Shown here: positions 1 to 39,483 of the stretch, piece by piece
Layout: every line of letters starts with the position of its first letter
Position numbering within the stretch: position 1 is the first letter of the stretch
Source of the DNA: a virus
Taxonomy: Duplodnaviria > Heunggongvirae > Uroviricota > Caudoviricetes
DNA: 39,483 nucleotides
IMG/VR virus record: IMGVR_UViG_2563366928_000012
Coordinates: 1 to 39,483 of that record
Strand: one strand, 5' to 3'
The notes under the pieces: generated by a model
Seen by the model: only the letters and a program-made list of their open reading frames with translations
Told to the model about the DNA's origin: nothing
Database searches by the model: none
Position numbers and translations under genes: made by a program

Positions 1-2946
1 TTAGTGCTTCCCTTCTATTAAGTCTAACCTAGCTTTTATCTTATCCATTTCTCTGCGCTGCCATGCCGCCTCGATATAGAATAAGAGATCAGGTCTGACC
101 CCCCATCTAGATCCTGCTGGCGTTATTTCAACGCGCTCAATGATGTCTTCTATTACCATCACTGGATTATCATCCTCATCAACAATGATGCTCCCGTCAT
201 TATCAGTCAGCGGCATTTCCCTTTGGCCAGTAATGACGTCATCATATACTGCGGGATAATCGTCATAGCAAAGAAAGGCATAGCGGCATGTTGTGCTTTC
301 TTCTTCCATGAGTCCGTGAGAAATAAGAACATCACGAAGTTGCTGCGCGATTACACCATGATGTATCCTCGCCCCTTCTTCCCCCTTTATAGCGACAGCG
401 TTCAGCCATTTATAAGCGATATACCTGACGTCACCCCAGGCATCCAGCAATGCTTCGTCAGGAGAGACCGGCTCTGTCTTTAATGTTCCGTCACTGGTAA
501 CCACAGGATTGGAGCCAAGATAAACTGTCGAGAACCTGTTTCCCGGACCACCAAGAGCATTTACATTATCAAGATAAGGTTTAACATCTCCGTTCTCAAA
601 AAGATGTTCGAGTGCGTTATATACCGCGCGACGTGGAGTACTGCTTCTGGAACCATGCAACGTTATCATTGCACCATCTGCTGAAGACGTTGTTTCACCG
701 CCGCTAACGATTAATCTCTGAGCGGTAACATCATCAGACGGTACTTTCTTCGCAATAATGGCGTAATTACCCTCAAGTTTGACTTCCGCGCGAACTTGTC
801 CTGATGTACCTGCATGGACAGTCAGTGACTGGACGGCAACATCATCTGTGAAATCAACGGGTACAGGAACCGTCCTCACGCCTGACGTCGACATAAAAGT
901 AGGAAGCGTTCTGTTAGGAGTGGCTCCGTAGACAAAATCCCTTGAAACAAATTCTTCCTGTTTAATTTTCACCCTGAAACAATACAAATCAGCCGGGTGA
1001 CCATCGTGAACATAAGGATATTTTCTGTTGTTATCCCCTATGCTCCATGGGTTTAGAAAGTCTTCCCCACCGAAAATGTAGTACAGCCAGTTGTCTTTGA
1101 TACAAACTGAACCAACACCAACCGCAGAGTTAACTATTCCGCCCTGATAAATCTGATCAGTAACATTAACCCACTCTACATTATCCAGACTCCACTCATT
1201 GACGTTAACTCTGGTCATAAATGTTCTTGGATAATTTCCTGCATAACGGTTATCAGGTTCTCCTCCTTCCCACTCACCAAATGCGCGCTCACTGCCAAAA
1301 ATAATCAGCTCATCGCCAACTTTGGCAAAAGGAAGGTTTGAGTGATGAACATTATTTGGGAAGCGAAGAGAATTCCATGATGTACCTAAATCAGAGCTTC
1401 TGTGCAATGAACTACCGGGTTGAGTACTTAATGTCCCCCTGGTCGTCAGATACAGAATGCCATCATAATATTTTACACATGGCTCAGATGCATTCGCCTC
1501 ATATTCTACAGGTATGCGTCTGCGAACAAAGCTACCAGGAGAACCGAAAGCATCAGAGAAATAGAGTATCCCAAGCTCGCGTGGACCAATATCACCATTA
1601 TGGTAGCCAACAGCAAAACTGTTATCGCTAATCGTCGCAAAACTGTGAATCTCAGTAACAGGAGTGCTTCCGTCAACAAAAGAAGGAATAGTTCCAAGAC
1701 TGGTTTTTCTCCATGGTGACGAGTGAAATGATGTGCCAAAACTCCAGTATCTACCCTCGTTATTCTGATCCACATCCTGGGTATTTTGCGTCGTAACTGT
1801 AAAGGTATTTTTATCAATAACAGTAGTCACCGTCATATTCCCGGTAACACCTGTAACACCAGAGTTTGAGAAGTTGACAAAATCACCAGCAAATAATCCG
1901 TGATCAGTAATGCGAATATAAGCGACTTGCTGATTTGCTGCTTTCGTTATACCACCATAAACGCGAAGGCTGCGACTCATTGGGCGATCCCACAACTCTG
2001 CAACCTGCAGTTTATTTCCTCTCACGGTCCGCGTCTCAATTACAGCAAAAAGGCGATTTCTGACAACCCCCATACTCATGCAGTGATAGTTAACTGTGGG
2101 ATAGTTTTCATGTAAATCTGTAAGCCATTCCGGCGTTGTCCAGGTCTTCCCGTCATCTCCTGAGCGAACCCATGCAACATGGAGGTTATTTACACCATGG
2201 CGGTCTCCAGCCATAAAAGGCGCATAGATGACATTGTCATATACAAACGTTTTATCCTGCGTCCAGGCGTTGTACCACGGTGTATCTGTAATTTTAAATA
2301 ACTCTCCCTGGATAAAATCTTCAGAAGCATAAAAAAGAGGCTGACCCGGTATTCTCTCAAATAAAAAACGAGCATTTTTAAATCGACTGACATCTGGAAG
2401 AGTTGATACTTTAAAAGTAAGCCCTCGCCCATCTATCTTTTCACCACCTGTTGCAACAGAAAGTAATTCTGATAGAGCTGATGTATCATCATGAACACCA
2501 TCACCAATAGCCCCCCAACCTCTTACATCATAACTGTCTCTCCATCTTGCTATCTGAAGTTTTGGGTATTTATTCGCTCCATCTGGGTCTTCTAATTGCC
2601 GCCGTAACTGATCAGGATCATACTTCAGCACATTCGGAAAATAGAACTGCTGCGCACCATACGCATCATAAACAGCCATAGAATGGCCTTGCACAGTTAC
2701 GAATTTGGCAATCTGTCCGTTATATACAGGATATCCAGCAGCGTTAATGATGATTGGTTGCGAAACAGGAACGTGAGAGCCGTCTTCGTTTTCCACATAA
2801 ACCTGAATCTGGTTTTCAGGATTTACAGGGTCAGTGTCAATTTTACCGATATAAATTTTGCCATTGGCTACGGCTTTAAAAGAACGCGCCATAGTGAAGA
2901 GTTGCGAAGGCATCGATACGATCACATTGGCTGTAATGTCTCTCAT
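1..2946 (-). CDS. Tailspike: P22-type head-binding N-terminus fused to endo-N-acylneuraminidase (endosialidase) with C-terminal intramolecular chaperone domain
   Basis: 981 aa ORF. N-terminus [11 protein letters not shown]...[21 protein letters not shown] matches recalled P22 gp9 head-binding domain. Sialidase Asp-box motifs SGDDGKTW and SSDLGTSW. C-terminal region resembles the autocleaving chaperone domain of endosialidase tailspikes. GGAG RBS upstream of ATG at 2946. Confidence 0.8.
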
Positions 2947-3002
2947 TTAATTTGCTCCAGACACAAGGAATCGCCGCAGCATGGCTACGGTGAATTTTGG
3001 GC

Positions 3003-3029
3003 ATAAAAAAACCCAGCCGAAGCTGGGTC
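3003..3029 (-). terminator. Intrinsic terminator between ant and tailspike
   Basis: Minus-strand hairpin ACCCAGC-TTCG-GCTGGGT followed by TTTTTTTAT. Confidence 0.5.
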
Positions 3030-3046
3030 GTTGCGTTGGTTATCTG

Positions 3047-3949
3047 TCAGTAGTTATGTACTGAAGGAGGTAATTCTTTATTCTTAAGTCTCATCCATGC
3101 GGAAAGATTCGTTGGTCCGTCTGGCTCATTAATATCAACATCTCGTGTATGGTTGATTAAAACATCTCTCGCTATATCGATAATACGGGAGAACTCATAA
3201 CCGCAGTCATGACATCTGCCGGAATAGTTCGATTGAATTTGTTTCAGCGCCGGATACAGTTCGCGGAATAATGCCTGTGAGCGGTTGGCATAATCCCATA
3301 ACCATACAAGGCTGTTTGCTTCTTTTGCAGAAAGCTCGTTGACTTTCCTCTCTTGTTTGCCAATGAACTCACCTTCAAGCACTACCCTGTGGATGTACTC
3401 TACGGCTTGCGGTATCTGAGATGCATCAAGCTCTTCAATACTTTCCACATTGAAACGCTGATGAATCATTGCATAAGCTTCTGGGTACATTAGATGCTTT
3501 TTGCTGACCAGCATATTTACAGCATCACGAAGCGGAGTCCTGTCATCAACAGATGTTTTCTTACGTGCATTTTCTGCCTTTCCCTTTGTCCAGTAGTCAT
3601 GCAGCACAGTAAAGCATTCTTCCTGGTACTGAATCAGTTTATCGCGGATGTCAGCACGAACTTTCTCGGGGTTGATGCTGAACAGCCATCCATTTAACTT
3701 CTTCAAAGGAAGGCAGAGTAGCTTACGAAGCTTTCCATCAGCAGCAACCATATTCATATGAATACAGTTGAACTTATCTAGTTGTTTCATAAGTTTTTGT
3801 TGCTGAGTACCCCAGCTCATTCCGAGGTTTTCAACGATTGGCTTCATCGCAACATATGCAACTCCGGCAGCCATGGCGGTGATAATTTGCTGACCGTTGA
3901 ATGGTACGTAAGAGGTGTTCACTGCTTCTAAAATTGCTATACTATTCAT
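3047..3949 (-). CDS. ant: Antirepressor Ant (immI)
   Basis: 300 aa from internal ATG ([10 protein letters not shown]...) with GGAGAA RBS; position downstream of arc and upstream of tailspike as in P22. The longer track ORF start at 4015 is judged read-through. Confidence 0.7.
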
Positions 3950-4400: not shown

Positions 4401-4478
4401 AAGATATCAAAGTGAGTATATCTAGTCAAAATTTTTTTGCATACACTTTGCTATCAAATTGAATACCAAAGGTGTGAT
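4401..4478. promoter_or_regulatory. Divergent arc/ant and mnt promoter-operator region
   Basis: Intergenic region between divergent arc and mnt; contains inverted repeat CAAAGTG ... CACTTTG and a GATATC palindrome. Confidence 0.4.
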
Positions 4479-4727
4479 ATGGCAAAGGGTGTGTCAATTT
4501 CTCCAACTACGGTAAGAATCCCTGAATCTTTACGCGAGGCTCTTGCTGTCAGAGCATCAAAAAATGGTCGCTCTGTTAACTCCGAGATCGTCATGATTTT
4601 GCAAGCCGCGATTGATGAAGATAGGTCGCCAAAGTCAGTTGAGTCATTTGCTCAGCAAGAAGCTGACAAATTCAAAGAGGCGCTGCTTGAGACGCTAAAG
4701 ACCATGTATGGTAAGGATGAAAAATAA
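4479..4727 (+). CDS. mnt: Mnt-like repressor
   Basis: Starts MAKGVSISPTTVRIPESLREALAVRASKNGRSVNSEIV; RHH with GRSVNSE motif as in P22 Mnt/Arc family. Stop overlaps next ATG by one base. Confidence 0.75.
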   Translation: MAKGVSISPTTVRIPESLREALAVRASKNGRSVNSEIVMILQAAIDEDRSPKSVESFAQQEADKFKEALLETLKTMYGKDEK

Positions 4728-5263
4728 TGCTGCACACAATTCATTTCTTATGCCCCGTTAACACTGCCACTGTTGGGCAACTTCAGAACCACTGTCTCAC
4801 CGCATTATCTCAAGGCGCAACTGAATTAAATATCCATATATCAAGTCAGGGAGGGGAAACTGCCGCTGGCTTTACTGCGTATAACTTTCTTAAGTCACTC
4901 CCTGTTACCGTTAGAACTCACAACATAAGCAATGTTGAATCCATAGCTAATATCGTTTTCCTGGCTGGCTCAGAACGTTTCGCAAACCCATTATCAAGAT
5001 TCCTGTTACATCCTCTATTATGGTGCTTTGCCTCCCCAGCCGCCGACCATGCCAGATTGAGAGAGTACGGGAAATGCCTCGATAACGATCTTGATCGCTT
5101 CGTTGAGACGTTCAATATCGACATCGGAACCCATATTAGGTGGGCATCCCTGATAGCAGACTCGACCATTTTGGATGCTAACAAGGCTCTTGAGCATGGC
5201 ATAATTAATTCCATAAAAACTGCAAGGCTGGCATCCAATCAGGCAAACTGGTGGGTTGTTTGA
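4727..5263 (+). CDS. ClpP-like (S14 Clp-fold) serine protease homolog
   Basis: 178 aa. ISSQGGETAAGFTAYNFL...SIANIVFLAGSERF...LLHP aligns by eye with ClpP (INSPGGVITAG...SMGAFLLTAG...MIHQP), with Ser and His conserved. Coupled to mnt. Confidence 0.55.
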   Translation: MLHTIHFLCPVNTATVGQLQNHCLTALSQGATELNIHISSQGGETAAGFTAYNFLKSLPVTVRTHNISNVESIANIVFLAGSERFANPLSRFLLHPLLWCFASPAADHARLREYGKCLDNDLDRFVETFNIDIGTHIRWASLIADSTILDANKALEHGIINSIKTARLASNQANWWVV

Positions 5264-5286: not shown

Positions 5287-5320
5287 ATAAAAAACCCACC
5301 TGACGGTGGGATTTTCTTAT
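5287..5320. terminator. Bidirectional intrinsic terminator between convergent genes
   Basis: AAAAAA-CCCACC-TGAC-GGTGGG-ATTTTCTTATT; A-run upstream and T-run downstream of the stem. Confidence 0.6.
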
Positions 5321-6309
5321 TCTTTATCTTTTAAGTCTATGGTTCTTTGTCCAATAACCTTTTCATCTATGTATTTCTCATACTCTTCTCGAGTATCAGA
5401 AACCATTGCAATACCAGTAACCTTACCTATTTGGGTTCTAAGAGCCTTAACTCCAACCTCTGATAAAAACTGGTGTATTTTATCGTTTTTGCTGCCTTTT
5501 TCTTCTTTTGACGTTTTTGCTAAATTAAATACCTTTCCTTCACTTCTGGCTAATGGGTAATAAATGTGATCTATCGTAAGATATTTAAACGCCCATGGTC
5601 GCCCTCTAACTGGTTTGTCTATACCATACAGACGATACCAATGCTCATAAAGTTCAGGGGTGAACTCTCTTTCATACTCACGAGCCTCTTCAGCAACATA
5701 TCGCTTATATGCTTGAATTACCTCTTCTTTTGTTCTGTCATACCCTGCCAAAGCATAAACAAGCCCCTGAATGCCCGCCTTGGCTGATGCATCAATAATG
5801 ATTCTGGCTTGCTTAGCAATCCCTTCCTGACTGGAAAGCAACTTACCTTCAGCTTTAGCATTAGAGATTGCTCGACATAAATCAATTAATATTGTTACAT
5901 CGTAGCCATGTATTACAGGATTAGCTGGAGTGTTCGTGCCCGCCTGTTTGTATTGAAAAATAAGAGGATTTTCAAGTTTTGCCCTTAATTCATGCCCGAT
6001 ATACTGAGAAATAGTTTTCCCCTGAATAAACTTTGGCAACCTGCTGCCACCTTCGCCAAGACCAATCGCTTCTCCCATGCCTCTCTGGCTAATAACGGCA
6101 GTTTTGTTATCATCATTTAACACATAGCACTCAACATCAATCCCGAATTCATGCTGGAACGATCCCTTATGCGTAGCAATTAATGGTTTATCCTTCCATC
6201 TTGCAGCCGCTGCTTTCTTTGCTATTTCAGAACGCTGCTCTTTAGTCAGCGACTTTGCGCGAGCGATACCGCCCTTAGCTTTCCCTTCGCCACTTTTCTT
6301 TTCAGTCAT
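5317..6309 (-). CDS. Hypothetical 330-aa protein with basic N-terminal putative DNA-binding region (accessory cargo)
   Basis: Start MTEKKSGEGKAKGGIARAKSLTKEQRSEIAKKAAAARW; rest not recognised with certainty. Longer track ORF start at 6384 rejected. Confidence 0.55.
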   Translation of the reverse strand: MTEKKSGEGKAKGGIARAKSLTKEQRSEIAKKAAAARWKDKPLIATHKGSFQHEFGIDVECYVLNDDNKTAVISQRGMGEAIGLGEGGSRLPKFIQGKTISQYIGHELRAKLENPLIFQYKQAGTNTPANPVIHGYDVTILIDLCRAISNAKAEGKLLSSQEGIAKQARIIIDASAKAGIQGLVYALAGYDRTKEEVIQAYKRYVAEEAREYEREFTPELYEHWYRLYGIDKPVRGRPWAFKYLTIDHIYYPLARSEGKVFNLAKTSKEEKGSKNDKIHQFLSEVGVKALRTQIGKVTGIAMVSDTREEYEKYIDEKVIGQRTIDLKDKE

Positions 6310-6310
6310 A

Positions 6311-6400
6311 ATGCAAGCACCTTTATTGTGATGTATGCTTGCATTATATGCACTGTACACACATACAAGCAAGCATAAAACCAAAACAAAATGCTTGCAT
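6311..6400. promoter_or_regulatory. Operator-like inverted repeat array in divergent promoter region
   Basis: Four copies of an 8-9 bp motif as two inverted pairs: ATGCAAGCA (6311-6319) / TGCTTGCAT (6336-6344) and GCAAGCAT (6369-6376) / ATGCTTGC (6391-6398). Confidence 0.5.
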
Positions 6401-6465
6401 TACAACCGCGCTACTCCAACTACACATTATCATCTGGTATCCTGAGCAAAACTAAGGAGGTTGGT

Positions 6466-6795
6466 GTGCTTGAATGGTTTCTGTTGGCTGCATTAGTCGT
6501 TTCTGGTTTGGTGTATGAGTATCGAATGCACTCTCTAACAAAAAAAATAGGAATTCTAGAAAACGAATATTGTGCTCTCAAATCCTCACTGGAACGTGAG
6601 CAAGGGGACTTAAAAATCTCTCTGTCTAGCATTGAGCGTTCTATAGAGAGCTTAGAGGATAAGGTTGATCGTATAAAGAATGAGGATATTCATGATATTA
6701 AGGACGACATATCCTTCTTAAAATCTTGGTTGAAAAATGTTGGGAAAATTGCCACATCAACACGAGATAAGCTCAATCCATCCATGGATGACTAA
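6466..6795 (+). CDS. Small membrane-anchored coiled-coil protein (accessory cargo)
   Basis: GTG start 5 nt after AGGAGG RBS; N-terminal hydrophobic helix LEWFLLAALVVSGLVYEY followed by charged heptad-like region. Converges on gp16 stop. Confidence 0.5.
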   Translation: MLEWFLLAALVVSGLVYEYRMHSLTKKIGILENEYCALKSSLEREQGDLKISLSSIERSIESLEDKVDRIKNEDIHDIKDDISFLKSWLKNVGKIATSTRDKLNPSMDD

Positions 6796-8931
6796 TTACT
6801 CCTGTGCCATTCCGCTTAGCGATGCCACAATTCCAGCTCTTGCTAAACGCTGGAACTCTTCGTTTCCTAGTGCCTCGCGTATTGCTTTTACGGCGGCCTT
6901 ATTTGCCATAAATCTGCGTTCCGCCGCCGCTAATGCGCCATCACTTGCCCCAACCTTAACTGCCTTTGTTGCCTCTTGAACAGCCTTTTCAATAGCGTAA
7001 CGACCGCTTCTAGTTGCGGATAATTTCGCTATCGCTCCTTTTGCCATTGCATCAATTGCCCCACCTGCAGCGCCACCCGCTATTGCTCCAATAACGCCTC
7101 CTCCAGAGAACCCTGCGATAGTGCCAGTAGTTCTAAAAGCGCCAGACAATGCGCTCTCTAAAACTGGATGAAGGCCATTCTCAAGAGTGCTAATGGCTGG
7201 CATAGATCGCCCTGTCTGTTCAACATATCGAAGTGGCTTTGTTGCTGCTCGTGCAAGTTCTCCGTATGAACTTGTAATCCTGCCAAGTTCTGGAGAATAT
7301 CGACTAATTGCCTTCACGTTTTGTGGGGTAAGAATAGTCGCGATATGCTTAATTCCAGCCTCTTCAGACTTACCTCCGCGTACCCCTTGCGATACCGCAT
7401 CTTGTAATATTGATGCAATTGCTGGCGCGCGTTCCGACTCAGGTAGGGCGCTTATTATTTTATGGAACTGACCTGTTCCACTTTTTGCTGAACCCTGCAA
7501 CGCCTTAGAGCCATTAGTTACCAACTGATCAGTTGCAAGGTCTCTACCAAACGCTGCTTCAGCCTGTTCTTGTGCTGTAAATCTTGCTTTTGACAGATCA
7601 TTAGCTTTTTGCCAGTCATCAAGAAAACCGCCATTTTGAGCCATTATGCGCATATCTTCCGTTGCTGCATCACGAAGCTCAGCCATGCGCCTTGCCGTAT
7701 TTGCCTCACCAGACCTTATATACTTCTGCTCTGCGTCAGCAAGTTTACTTCGCCATGCCTTCATGGCATCAAACGTGATTCCTTTTTTACTAGTTTTAGC
7801 ATAAGCAGATGCGAATTGTTTCATCTCAGGAGTTAGCGGCATGCCGGCCAAAATATCACCCTGAATTGTAGCGTTCAGGTTTGACATTCTGGCCTTTGCG
7901 TCAGGCATCGTGGAGCGGACGCTATCCCATGCGGCCTTTTCTGAATTTTTCATTTTATCAATACTTGCCAAAACCCTTTGTTTTATGGCTGCACTTTTTT
8001 CTGATGCAGTTCCTGCTTCAGCCCCAAACTCATCCAATGCTGAGTTAAATTTCGACTCTATTTCACTGAATGCTTTGGTGTGTGCATCCTGTGTAATTCC
8101 GGGCTTTGACGCCAGAATCCCCTCCGCCTGAGCAAGACCACGACTACCTGATCTCATGCCAGGAGTTAATGCGTTGATATCTATTCCAGCAGTATCTGCT
8201 GCTTTTGCTATTTCGTCTGACACATTAGCTGACTGTCTGGCAATAATCTCTCTTCCTGTACCAGACTTTGCCATTTTCGAAACATCAGCAGCGGAATTTA
8301 TTGCCCCGCCACCAAGAACTTGAGGTGATTTAGAGGTTAAGATCCTTCCAGCCCCAGAAAGTATCCCCTGAGCACCAATATTGATACCACCGTTAATGGC
8401 AGCATTTTGTGCAAAGTCGCCCTCCTGATTTGCAGCATCAGCAAGAGAACCTGCAATCATGTTTCCTGCGGAACCGATATCTCCAGCGAGCTTTGCTGTC
8501 GCTCCAGCAGCTTTTGCCGCTGTGCCAATTGGCAGGAGATACCCACCAATTGTTTCACCGGCTTGCGCGTAAGGGTCTGTCGGTCGCTCGACAGGGCGAT
8601 AAACATCATCCAAAACCTTGGGGCCACCAAGCCCCTGGCTGATTGCATTAATCAGACTTGCGCCACCCTGCAATACGTCAAATGGTATGTTTACCAGACC
8701 ACGACCAGCCTGTTCTGCAATTTGCCCTGCACTTTGACCACCAGTGAGCCAATCGCCAGCTTGTTGCATCAATGATGGTTCTTCCCGTGTTGGTGCATTA
8801 TTGGCCTGATTAACTGTTTGTTGCTGAACAGCCTGACCAGCAAAATACTCATCAATGGCGGTGCCAATATCTTCCGTGCTCGTACCATCAGGAAAGGTAA
8901 ATGTCTTACCGTTTGCAGTAACTTTCATCAT
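6796..8931 (-). CDS. Ejection (injection) protein, P22 gp16-like
   Basis: 711 aa, Ala/Gly-rich, position after gp20 in the conserved P22 order 7-20-16. Confidence 0.65.
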
Positions 8932-10343
8932 TCCACCGTAAATTGAATGCCTGATTTTGAGGTATATGATCCAACCTGATTCCGTGGTTCTCCTGAAGGT
9001 GTCGAATCTTGTGCTGGCGCTGCGTCAGTATTCAATGACATATACCGCTTAACGGCACTCCCCAATGATTCACCTTTTTTAACATCCAACCCCAATATCT
9101 GACCGCCATTACGCGATTGTCCAGGGTTGCCATTCGCGCTCATCCACTCGGCTTTAAACTCATTAAACTGCGCGTTTCGTCGCTCAAGGTTTGCCATTGC
9201 ATCAAGCCATCTTGCGACCGTCTCAGGGTTATCCATGTCAGTTGGCGCACCCTGTCGAACGATCTCAACGTCTTTATCCGTTGCTGGGCCGGGAGGTAGG
9301 AATTTAAGAACCTGACTGTTAACAAGGGCATTTTGGCGAATGCGCAAATCACGCAATGTCGTATCGCTTCCGGTAAGTTTTGCGAACATGTTCTGTGCGT
9401 TACCGAACAAACCTGTCGTTGGTTTTTCTGCTCTGAACTGTTGAGCAAGCGCACTCATGGAATTGGCTGAGTTTGATGATGCTGTGGCATTGTTTACAGC
9501 CGTCTCGATGCCTTTTTCCATGTTTACTGACAGCTTAGGTGCTTCGCTAATCAACTGCTGAGCCTTTTCCTGCGCTTGCTGCATCTTAAACCCAAACTCT
9601 TGCTGATCCAGAGCCAAGCGTTGTGCTGCGATATTGTGCCCAGTCATTGCTGACTGATAGGAAAGGTTTTGCCCTCTCGCCTGAAGTGCTTCTCCAGCCT
9701 GATTGCTGCGGATTGTCTCTGCCAGTCTGCCTCGGTCAATTTCACGACCAGCCATCTTGTCCTGAACAGCAAACGCCTTTTCTGGTCCAAGCGCACCGAG
9801 AGACATAGTAGTCAGCATGTGTGATAGCTGCTCTGGATTCTGGATACCTGTCTGAATCATCCAGTCAGCATTCGCCCCCACGCGATTTAACCTGTCCTTG
9901 TTGTCAGTAATGAATTTACTGTAGGCTTCCGGTCCCTGAGAAAGAGCGACGTTAGCCCTCATGGCTAAATCGCCCATATCGTTGCGTTGCTGCTCATTAA
10001 TACCGGAAAACGCCTGTTGTGCCTGCGCAACAAACGCTGGATTTTCCTGGGCAAACTTAAATAGTCCAGATGGATCACCAGAAGCCCATGCATCAGCGTG
10101 AACCTTATTGAACGCACTAATAGCTTTCTGTTGCTGTTCCTGCTTATAAATATCTGCAACTCCAGCCAGACCACGTAACGCGGTCAGACCAACGTTATTT
10201 GCACCTGATCGAGCCAGTTCATTGTTTTCGCGGATCAGACCAAGCGTTGCGTTAATGTCGCTTGCCTTTGGCGCATTCTCATTTTGCGTACCGATGCCAG
10301 CCAGAAAACCACCAGAATTAATACCCTGTTGCCAAGTAGCCAT
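8928..10343 (-). CDS. Ejection protein, P22 gp20-like
   Basis: 471 aa, matching size and position of P22 gp20. Confidence 0.65.
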
Positions 10344-12205: not shown

Positions 12206-13623
12206 TACTCGATCCTTATCTGAGCGCCAGACAGAGTGACAGGTGACTTCGTGATAACGCGCAATTTGAAGCCGACATTTTTCCTGATGCGCCCTACTCG
12301 CTTCCACAAAACGCGTTTGTCGTAAACGAACGGTTCATTCTGCTCAATCATCTGCTCACGTCCGTAATTGATGCCGTCAGTGGTTGCAGAGAGGAACAGG
12401 CGGTCAGCGTACTGAGCGACACCAGTCGATGATTCAACTTCCAGATCAAAACATCTGGCGTTCTCAGCTTTGAAGAGTGGTGTAAACAACAGGTGTTCTT
12501 GCTGTAGCCCATACTGGCTGCTGATATCGAACTGCAATTTGCCGATAACCGATTCCAGCTTATCTCCGCACGTTATCTGATTGCCTTCGTAAATGAAGTC
12601 GATAGCGCGGTACACATCGTCATACAAGCCTGTTTTCAGCACACACCATTGCGGACCATTAGCGCTTGAAGATGCGTCGTACACGAGAACATGGCGAGGA
12701 AGGTGGATAATCAGCAACTCATGAGCATCAAATCGCAGCGATTCCATCACACCATCAGCCAGTTCATCAGCAGTGTAGGAGCGTAGTATTTTCTCAATGC
12801 TCGCGCTGGCGATTGGTGATACCTGCCCGGAACCGATGATGTATACAGATGGCGCACCTGTTGCCGGATTGCTGATGAACGCATAAGAATCAGCGAATGG
12901 CGTTTTGCAGTAAGTCCCGGCAATACCTTTCTGCACCATCAGCGATGGCTGGGCGACATACAAAGCAGCACCAACGGTGGTTGCACCAGTCAGGGAAAAA
13001 TACTCAATCGTCGATGAACCAAAGCAGACGATGAAGTCTCGCCATGTTCCGATTCCGATGATGCCGTCAGGCTGCGACTCGGCACGATATTGTGCGCTGT
13101 AGCGGTCAGGATGCGATTCGTCTTCAAGGTCAGTGATAAACCATGAATCAGTGCCGTCTTTTGACCACGCATAACGCCCGCGTAAGCGCGTAATGTCACG
13201 AACAGAACCTAACTCATACTGCGTGAATCCGCTGTCTGTAGGCCAGTTTGAGACGGTTTTAACCGTGCCATCATAGCGATACTCGACCAGTTGACCATTA
13301 ACGCCTACAGCCTGAGATGTCCGACCATGTGCCATTGATACGCGACCACTTCCGGCGACGTCACCGACTTCACTTTCGCCTTTGTAGAGCTTGCCACCAC
13401 ACACGCGATAAACAGCATTCTGCGCCATGTTGTACTCGACGCCGCGCGATACTCCGTTCACATCAGAACGTTTGGCAATGCCCGGGAATGAACGAAGATA
13501 TCCGCTGCTGTTAAGGATTTCTTTGGGGGTAGCCAACATATTCACTGGCAGATAGTCGATATAGTCGGCGTTTCGAAAGTCTTTGCCGACACCTTTCATA
13601 AGCGGAAGTTGCTGAATCGGCAT
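12205..13623 (-). CDS. Tail hub protein (P22 gp10-like)
   Basis: 472 aa, size and position as P22 gp10. Confidence 0.7.
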
Positions 13624-38213: not shown

Positions 38214-38432
38214 ATGTACTTGACACTTCAGGAGTGGAACGCACGCCAGCGACGCCCAAGAAGCCTTGAAACAGTTCGTCGATGGGTACGCGAGTGCAGG
38301 ATATTCCCTCCTCCGGTTAAGGATGGAAGAGAGTATTTGTTCCACGAATCAGCGGTAAAGGTTGACTTAAATCGACCAGTAACAGGTAGCCTTTTGAAGA
38401 GGATCAGAAATGGGAAGAAGGCGAAGTCATGA
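38214..38432 (+). CDS. xis: Excisionase (lambda Xis)
   Basis: 72 aa MYLTLQEWNARQRRPRSLETVRRWVRECRIFPPPVKDGREYLF, matches recalled lambda Xis. Confidence 0.9.
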   Translation: MYLTLQEWNARQRRPRSLETVRRWVRECRIFPPPVKDGREYLFHESAVKVDLNRPVTGSLLKRIRNGKKAKS

Positions 38433-39483
38433 GCGCCGGGATTTACCCCCTAACCTTTATATAAGAAACAATGGATATTACTGCTACAGGGACCCAAGGA
38501 CGGGTAAAGAGTTTGGATTAGGCCGAGACAGGAGGATAGCAATCACTGAAGCAATACAGGCCAATATTGAGTTACTCTCAGACAGCGGACGCAAATCACT
38601 GATAGACAGAATTAAAGGCGGTGACGCAATCACTCTTCATGTGTGGCTTGACCGATATGAAAGAATCCTCACCGAAAGGGGGATCAGGCCGAAAACTCTA
38701 CTCGACTACGCCAGCAAAATCAGGGCAATCCGAAGAAAATTGCCGGACAAACCGCTCACTGACATATCAACGAAAGATGTGGCAGCAATGCTAAACACCT
38801 ACGTAGCAGAAGGTAAAGCAGCTTCCGCAAAATTAATCAGGTCAACCCTTGTTGACGTTTTTCGTGAAGCAATAGCCGAGGGGCATGTGGCAACGAATCC
38901 GGTAACAGCAACCCGTACAGCAAAGTCAGAAGTAAGGCGCTCAAGGCTGACAGCTAATGAGTATGTCGAGATTTACCATGCAGCCGAACCTCTCCCTATC
39001 TGGCTAAGGCTGGCGATGGATTTGGCTGTCGTTACAGGGCAGAGAGTGGGCGATTTATGCAGAATGAAATGGTCAGACATAAACGACAACCATCTTCACA
39101 TTGAACAGAGTAAAACAGGGGCTAAACTCGCCATTCCGCTAATGCTAACGATTGACGCGCTCAATATCTCATTGGCTGATACACTACAGAAATGCAGGGA
39201 GGCCAGCAGCAGTGAAACTATAATCGCATCAAAGCATCACGATCCGCTTTCCCCGAAAACAGTATCAAAGTATTTTACAAAGGCGAGAAATGCATCTGGA
39301 CTCTCATTTGATGGAAACCCGCCAACATTCCATGAACTGCGTAGCCTGTCAGCAAGGCTATACCGGAACCAGATTGGCGATAAGTTTGCTCAACGTCTTC
39401 TCGGGCATAAATCAGATTCAATGGCTGCGCGGTATAGGGATAGCCGTGGACGGGAATGGGACAAAATTGAAATCGACAAATGA
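38410..39483 (+). CDS. int: Tyrosine integrase (lambda Int family)
   Basis: 357 aa; N-terminus MGRRRSHERRDLPPNLYIRNNGYYCYRDPRTGKEFGLGRDRRIAITEAIQAN and C-terminus GREWDKIEI match recalled lambda Int; overlaps xis as in lambda. Confidence 0.9.
   Translation: MGRRRSHERRDLPPNLYIRNNGYYCYRDPRTGKEFGLGRDRRIAITEAIQANIELLSDSGRKSLIDRIKGGDAITLHVWLDRYERILTERGIRPKTLLDYASKIRAIRRKLPDKPLTDISTKDVAAMLNTYVAEGKAASAKLIRSTLVDVFREAIAEGHVATNPVTATRTAKSEVRRSRLTANEYVEIYHAAEPLPIWLRLAMDLAVVTGQRVGDLCRMKWSDINDNHLHIEQSKTGAKLAIPLMLTIDALNISLADTLQKCREASSSETIIASKHHDPLSPKTVSKYFTKARNASGLSFDGNPPTFHELRSLSARLYRNQIGDKFAQRLLGHKSDSMAARYRDSRGREWDKIEIDK

Follow-up and report, generated by a model that had tools for sequence, protein, structure and literature searches.

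The open reading frame at the start of the viral DNA analysed here, a stretch of 39,483 nucleotides referred to below as the window, is almost certainly an allele of the siaK1 gene of phage CUS-3, encoding the receptor-destroying tailspike of a P22-like temperate podovirus with K1 polysialic acid as its target. The two proteins are both of 981 amino acids, of which 968 are identical, and the genes show 99.0% nucleotide identity over their full length (CUS-3 SiaK1, ABQ88383.1, in CP000711.1). The GenBank record of CUS-3 names the product "endosialidase tailspike protein" and gives endo-alpha-sialidase activity by direct assay (PMID 16689790). Hydrolysis of alpha-2,8-polysialic acid by the window protein would be expected from its 99% identity to this directly assayed enzyme, together with the conserved residues described below. 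The identity of the gene is settled by this annotated, 99% identical counterpart and by solved structures of homologues at about 63% identity.

An earlier examination of the letters alone (the sequence-only reading) had the window ending exactly at the stop of this gene. This was wrong: the gene lies on the minus strand and abuts the window start, bases 1–3 of the window being its TAA. The reading frame is intact and uninterrupted over 981 codons, and the frames that overlap it, none longer than 107 amino acids, are unsupported. Its parts are as follows.

1..2946, minus strand: tailspike open reading frame of 981 amino acids with an ATG start (ORF list and sequence); the siaK1 allele, a complete endosialidase tailspike precursor (nucleotide identity to CUS-3 siaK1)
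2608..2946, minus strand: P22-type Head_binding domain, virion-anchoring, residues 1–113 (Pfam PF09008, E=2.4e-66; PDB; tblastn)
2512..2607, minus strand: junction and linker, residues 114–145 (tblastn; alignment with K1F)
2311..2511, minus strand: End_N_terminal, the endosialidase N-terminal extension, residues 146–212 (PF12218, E=9e-37)
961..2310, minus strand: End_beta_propel, the six-bladed beta-propeller catalytic domain, residues 213–662 (PF12217, E=1.4e-232)
1729..1977, minus strand: End_beta_barrel, inserted within the propeller, residues 324–406 (PF12195, E=1.2e-46)
496..960, minus strand: End_tail_spike stalk domain, residues 663–817 (PF12219, E=4e-78)
4..495, minus strand: C-terminal intramolecular chaperone domain, residues 818–981 (PDB 3gw6; PF13884)

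The scores of PF12217, PF12195, PF12219 and PF12218 all far exceed their cut-offs, and Peptidase_S74 (PF13884, the chaperone of endosialidase) matches residues 818–878 with E=1.6e-10. In searches of PDB sequences, the endosialidase endoNF (1v0e, 3gvl) matched residues 145–817 (E=0) and its C-terminal chaperone (3gw6) residues 698–979 (E=5.6e-94). The beta-propeller, inserted beta-barrel and stalk that define an endosialidase are thus recognized both by Pfam and through the endoNF structures. At the other end of the protein, residues 1–118 were matched by Sf6 gp14 (7sg7, E=4e-64) and by the head-binding domain of P22 gp9 (2vky/1lkt, E about 1e-50), so that the N-terminal domain of a P22-type tailspike is found by PF09008, by the P22 and Sf6 structures and by tblastn. 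The PHROGs assignment is phrog_1171, tail spike protein (E=0). A chance reading frame or chance resemblance was rejected, since the E-values are effectively zero.

The sequence-only reading had proposed a P22 gp9-like N-terminus fused to an endosialidase, and this is borne out. With residues 1–145 as the tblastn query, matches from the P22 family cover residue 1 to about 113–133, at amino acid identities of 92.6% for N7, 88.7% for Sf101, 86.8% for epsilon34 and 65.7% for P22 gp9 (residues 1–133). Matches to K1F-type endosialidases of Kayfunavirus and Phapecoctavirus begin at residues 113–114. Since the first set ends where the second starts, the fusion point falls just past YDPDQ (residues 109–113). 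Sequence comparison places it within residues 113–122, and shows the gene to be a mosaic.

The nearest relatives on the two sides of the junction differ accordingly. The K1F enzyme (endoNF, gp17; 1v0e, 3gvl, 3gw6) shares about 63% amino acid identity over the C-terminal 836 residues and 55–78% by domain: the linker has 56%, the N-terminal extension and propeller 61–78%, the stalk 56% and the chaperone domain 55%. Its N-terminus is of the T7-tail-fibre type, whereas the window protein has the P22 head-binding domain. The chaperone domain, searched with the C-terminal 144 residues, is common to K1F, K1-5, K5-lyase tailspikes and many others. The endorhamnosidase tailspike of P22, gp9, has a homologous head-binding domain, as do epsilon34, Sf101 and N7 (87–93% identity), and the tailspike genes of P22, Sf6, HK620 and epsilon34 occupy the same genomic place as the window gene, after ant. 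The body of these P22-type relatives is wholly different, however: it is a beta-helix that hydrolyses O-antigen, and a Pfam search shows no chaperone domain in them.

None of this is new for the protein itself. According to a review, the tailspikes of CUS-3, HK620, Sf6 and P22 have a conserved N-terminal domain (PMC5380687, citing Stummeyer et al. 2006), and CUS-3 has as its catalytic domain an endosialidase in common with K1F, whose N-terminus is T7-type (PMC5380687). Because that review states the same architecture, the chimera, though correct, is an already-known textbook case, and the present analysis adds nothing to published knowledge of the protein. The gene is another copy of textbook modular tailspike evolution, and it settles no open question.

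That the tailspike is a horizontally exchanged module, as had also been suggested, agrees with the tail fibre of the epsilon15-like Uetakevirus vB_EcoP_ZX5 (QTH80017.1), which has the same catalytic cassette behind a different N-terminus. Nucleotides 522–2914 of the gene are 99.6% identical in DNA, and the propeller, barrel and stalk are 99–100% identical as protein. The ZX5 fibre is 1039 amino acids long and has an unrelated, longer N-terminal adaptor, another extreme C-terminus and another phage backbone. It represents a second, independent chimera and shows the mobility of the module.

The resemblance to CUS-3 SiaK1 extends to the order of the domains, the fusion point, the upstream bsq1 boundary sequence and the neighbouring ant gene, which are all as in the window. 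Of the 13 substitutions between the two proteins, the head-binding domain with its linker accounts for four, the catalytic body with the stalk for another four, and the chaperone domain for five; none of the 13 is at a key, cleavage or lysine position.

The catalytic machinery was examined in an alignment of five proteins: the window protein, CUS-3 SiaK1, the ZX5 tail fibre, K1F gp17 and K1E gp47. The key catalytic residues reported for K1F are H350, R549, E581, R596 and R647 (PMC12632334, a K1F deep-mutational-scan preprint). They correspond to H250, R456, E488, R503 and R554 of the window protein and are invariant in all five. Other residues listed in the same preprint, Q330, D331, H527, S528, K585 and N699, are conserved too. 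The codons of the key residues were verified by hand on the window sequence; the Asp-boxes were found in a strict search for S-x-D-x-G-x-x-W.

2197-2199, minus strand: codon of key residue H250
1579-1581, minus strand: codon of key residue R456
1483-1485, minus strand: codon of key residue E488
1438-1440, minus strand: codon of key residue R503
1285-1287, minus strand: codon of key residue R554
2140-2163, minus strand: Asp-box SGDDGKTW, residues 262–269
1375-1398, minus strand: Asp-box SSDLGTSW, residues 517–524
493-495, minus strand: codon of the cleavage serine S818, with autocleavage predicted after T817 (maps to K1F S911)
478-480, minus strand: codon of the conserved lysine K823, five residues past S818 (maps to K1F K916)

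The sialidase Asp-boxes claimed for the body of the protein are therefore present as two strict copies, both kept in K1F and K1E, and the alignment with K1F, K1E and CUS-3 that had been proposed as a check finds the active-site residues of endoNF in place. An inactive or binding-only enzyme was rejected, because the key residues are all kept.

The same alignment locates the cleavage serine that was to be looked for. In the K1F record the mature chain is annotated (mat_peptide) to end before S911, the remainder being the intramolecular chaperone, and this boundary maps to T817|S818 of the window protein. The crystallised endoNF chain aligns up to exactly T817. The columns of S818 and K823 are invariant across the five proteins, and K1F K916 is presumably the lysine of a serine-lysine dyad. 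Homology, cleavage serine and downstream lysine thus all agree with the C-terminal chaperone domain of the earlier description. By analogy with the K1F mat_peptide annotation, this domain may be released by autoproteolysis after the trimer has folded.

With respect to specificity, the enzyme might have shifted to O-acetylated polysialic acid, to the K92 alpha-2,8/2,9 polymer or to another acidic capsule, or might bind without cleaving. Such a shift could be looked for in the 13 substitutions relative to CUS-3, or in the differences from K1F: a seven-residue insertion, FVDGSTP, at residues 422–428, G310 in place of K410, and M760 in place of Q853. The last of these K1F residues is one which we take to be part of a sialic-acid binding site in the stalk; M760 is found in both the window protein and CUS-3. 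Likewise, the active CUS-3 enzyme also has G at the position of K410, a residue reported as essential in vitro which yet tolerates substitution in the K1F mutational scan (PMC12632334). CUS-3 SiaK1, for which experimental activity is annotated, in fact has all of these differences from K1F, and nine of the 13 differences from CUS-3 itself affect the head-binding domain with its linker (four) or the chaperone domain, which would be lost by cleavage (five). The catalytic and key residues are all conserved, and the known carriers of the gene are K1 strains. On these grounds an altered specificity is extremely unlikely. The K1 capsule, which the sequence-only reading had predicted as the target, is very probably the correct one, given the 99% identity to the assay-annotated siaK1 of CUS-3 and the named K1 strains among the carriers.

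A course of events for the K1-directed tailspike may be drawn from these homologies. The precursor would trimerise with the aid of the C-terminal chaperone domain (residues 818–981), as suggested by homologous structures, and this domain would afterwards release itself by a cut before S818. In its mature form the trimer, with 817 residues per chain, would attach to a P22-type tail through residues 1–113. The propeller site formed by H250, R456, E488, R503 and R554 would bind and cut alpha-2,8-polysialic acid, and the cleavage would open a path for the virion through the K1 capsule of E. coli to the outer membrane.

The surroundings of the gene are those of a P22-like phage. Its neighbours are P22-type virion genes (homologues of gp7, gp20 and gp16) and an immI region with Ant and Arc (P22_AR and Arc domains), and the tailspike gene follows immI (ant, arc, mnt), the location it has in Lederbergvirus. 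The backbone of the window matches CUS-3, HK620 and other P22-like phages, and its full set of long reading frames aligns with the P22-like morphogenesis genes of CUS-3 and phiv205-1. A PADLOC search of five reading frames in the immI region, a ClpP-like one included, gave no matches. The 100 bp preceding the tailspike ATG, the spacer to ant, differ at three positions from bsq1 of CUS-3. Two further features of the window are relevant here.

3010..3029, minus strand: strong hairpin with a T-run, resembling an intrinsic terminator, in the spacer that separates ant from the tailspike start (terminator scan)
38410..39483, plus strand: lambda-family integrase of 357 amino acids, at the opposite end of the window from the tailspike; identity to HK022 Int 96%

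In terms of the CUS-3 annotation, the hairpin falls within bsq1, a boundary sequence of 100 bp.

The likeness to CUS-3 does not extend over the whole phage. For positions 2947–27000 of the window, 67% aligns with CUS-3, at 95% identity. CUS-3 has an IntS-type integrase, the argW site and neuO downstream of the tailspike, whereas the lineage of the window has an HK022-type integrase and the torT site and is without neuO. The integrase of the window is unrelated to that of CUS-3, and the prophage adjoins torT rather than argW.

Of 5426 complete E. coli genomes, 181 have a near-identical full-length gene. Carriers include the named K1 strains CE10 (O7:K1), UTI89, IHE3034 and VR50 (OR:K1:H-), as well as APEC O18, the capsule types being taken from strain names or from the literature for a few strains only. 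VR50 belongs to ST10, phylogroup A (PMC8281228). Exactly this 981-residue protein recurs in 24 or more public contigs; OZ121081 was compared by BLAST identity only.

The sequence-only reading had also placed a possible capsule-modifying gene downstream of the tailspike, outside the window. Such a gene does exist in CUS-3 and in its argW-integrated relatives, in which neuO begins about 150 bp beyond the tailspike stop. The neuO gene of CUS-3 has 19 AAGACTC repeats and is followed by the IntS-type integrase and attL. The product is a phase-variable O-acetyltransferase of polysialic acid (PMC8653822). The corresponding position lies outside the window, and in the examined contigs that encode the exact protein neuO is absent from the place directly downstream of siaK1. 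In three of these (L003, L004 and L007) the tailspike stop is followed by 628 bp of phage DNA with no open reading frame above 61 amino acids, no neuO and no AAGACTC repeat; in the other five listed there is a gap of about 690 bp, without a called gene, before the next gene. The 628-bp segment leads into torT-torR-torCAD or, in L007, into the same 357-residue integrase. L007 thus joins the tailspike end of the window to its integrase end through an attP-like junction, which gives a phage genome of about 40.2 kb. This junction is compatible with excised circular phage DNA.

Comparison with CUS-3 locates what is missing. Positions 12847–13038 of L003 match 8847–9038 of the CUS-3 locus, and positions 13021–13352 match 9875–10206. 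Between these two blocks, 853 bp of CUS-3 that hold neuO are absent from L003. In CUS-3 an 11-bp direct repeat, TAAATATAAAA, bounds these 853 bp; the window lineage has a single copy of it. The second block includes 84 nt from the 3' end of the integrase gene of CUS-3, and this stump is annotated by RefSeq in VR50 as a pseudogene fragment. Among the matches listed, a siaK1-type tailspike stands beside torT in seven complete genomes. Five of the seven are without neuO (VR50, M15, AR_0017, OZ546925 and OZ546911) and two have it (19AR1321 and 19AR0253). The neuO of 19AR1321 has eight heptads and is therefore out of frame. The most economical reading is that a P22-like phage with the HK022 integrase and attachment site acquired, by recombination, the siaK1-neuO end of a CUS-3-like phage, and that neuO would have been deleted later in the branch of the window.

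Since DNA has visibly been lost beside the gene in this lineage, namely neuO and most of the IntS-type integrase, and since a cryptic state is common among E. coli prophages, it might be asked whether the tailspike is a relic in a defective prophage, intact by chance, not used for virions and without present function. This is highly unlikely. The reading frame of 981 codons is uninterrupted, and the exact protein has been kept in at least 24 contigs. The window has the full set of long reading frames that align with the morphogenesis genes of CUS-3 and phiv205-1, and the junction of tailspike, attP and integrase in L007 is the one expected of excised or replicating phage DNA.

The backbone with the HK022-type integrase, at the torT site and without neuO, is the sole mildly new material in this analysis. 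There is perhaps an even chance that its setting has not been described before: a siaK1 cassette with the CUS-3 flank and an 84-nt IntS stump, in a torT-site phage with the HK022 integrase, from which neuO was lost by an 853-bp deletion between 11-bp repeats. Copies of the cassette that are at least 99% identical are found in three or more backbones of temperate podoviruses, and at the one torT site the phage occurs both with and without neuO. The pattern is descriptive and incremental, and may interest students of K1 capsule O-acetylation. For the present phage, the tailspike marks the prophage as specific for the K1 capsule and its host lineage as probably K1. If the proposed loss of neuO is correct, the K1-specific phage of K1 lysogens such as VR50 would come without phase-variable O-acetylation of the capsule, and these lysogens would provide a natural comparison for the role of neuO for phage and host.

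Between the stop codon of the tailspike gene and the att core lies a 628-bp spacer, outside the window, made up of the flanking DNA of phage CUS-3 when compared with the CUS-3 locus (L001, CP000711.1). Its sequence is identical in three contigs that encode the exact tailspike protein of the window (L003, L004 and L007). The features on this side of the phage are:

L003 12947-13574: spacer from tailspike stop to att core, set against L001 8947-10206
L003 about 13269-13352, and 3772-3854 in E. coli VR50 (L015): IntS-type integrase remnant, 84 nt, matching the 3′ end of the CUS-3 integrase gene
L014 (E. coli 19AR1321) 1948-3412: torT-site version with neuO
L007 (Logan contig SRR22944320_670) 8213-8913: tailspike-integrase junction

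In all three contigs the spacer is without the 853-bp segment of CUS-3 that carries neuO, the capsule O-acetyltransferase gene following siaK1 there, and the absence is clean. An 11-bp direct repeat, TAAATATAAAA, flanks this segment in CUS-3 (L001 9028 and 9881); the window lineage has a single copy. No AAGACTC heptads occur in the spacer of L003, L004 or L007, and its longest ORF in these contigs does not exceed 61 aa. Two complete genomes, 19AR1321 and 19AR0253, still keep neuO at the torT site. The gene in 19AR1321, annotated as a truncated acyltransferase, has 8 heptad repeats and is predicted to be phase-off, since 8 is not a multiple of three.

The persistence in the spacer of the IntS-type fossil, which RefSeq annotates as a pseudogene fragment, shows that a CUS-3-like element was the source of the tailspike-side end of the phage. 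The integrase of CUS-3 is unrelated to that encoded at the far end of the window. The latter shares 96% of its residues with HK022 Int, and in some Stx1a-converting phages the integrase matches it at 99% identity. The prophage adjoins torT, and its att core lies around CCTTAAGGTGAA. In L007 about 700 bp with attP connect the tailspike end to the integrase end. This junction is a circular or tandem form, which suggests phage excision or replication in that sample, and it gives a phage genome of about 40.2 kb.

Within the window, the following features were compared with related phages:

1663-1683 (aa 422-428): 7-residue propeller insertion, FVDGSTP
4437-5263 (+): Arc/FitA-like ribbon-helix-helix ORF (96 aa), then ClpP-like ORF (PF00574, 178 aa)
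5317-6795: P63C-domain ORF (355 aa, -) and unannotated 134-aa ORF (+)
38410-39483 (+): lambda-family integrase ORF, terminating exactly at the window edge

The ClpP-like start codon shares one base with the stop of the Arc/FitA-like ORF. PADLOC gave no match for this pair, which belongs to the immI region; CUS-3 has other genes there. The P63C-domain and 134-aa ORFs, flanked by the immI region on one side and the gp16 homologue on the other, occupy a position taken in CUS-3 by hypothetical genes.

Relative to K1F and K1E, the FVDGSTP insertion is a feature of CUS-3-type enzymes. In these, K410 of K1F is replaced by Gly (G310, codon 2017-2019 in the window) and Q853 by Met (M760, codon 667-669). 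The epsilon15-like temperate phage vB_EcoP_ZX5 (Uetakevirus) carries, at L011 2303-5422, the same endosialidase cassette joined to a different N-terminal adaptor. Since nt 522-2914 of the window gene and this cassette are 99.6% identical in DNA, a very recent cassette exchange between podovirus genera is indicated.
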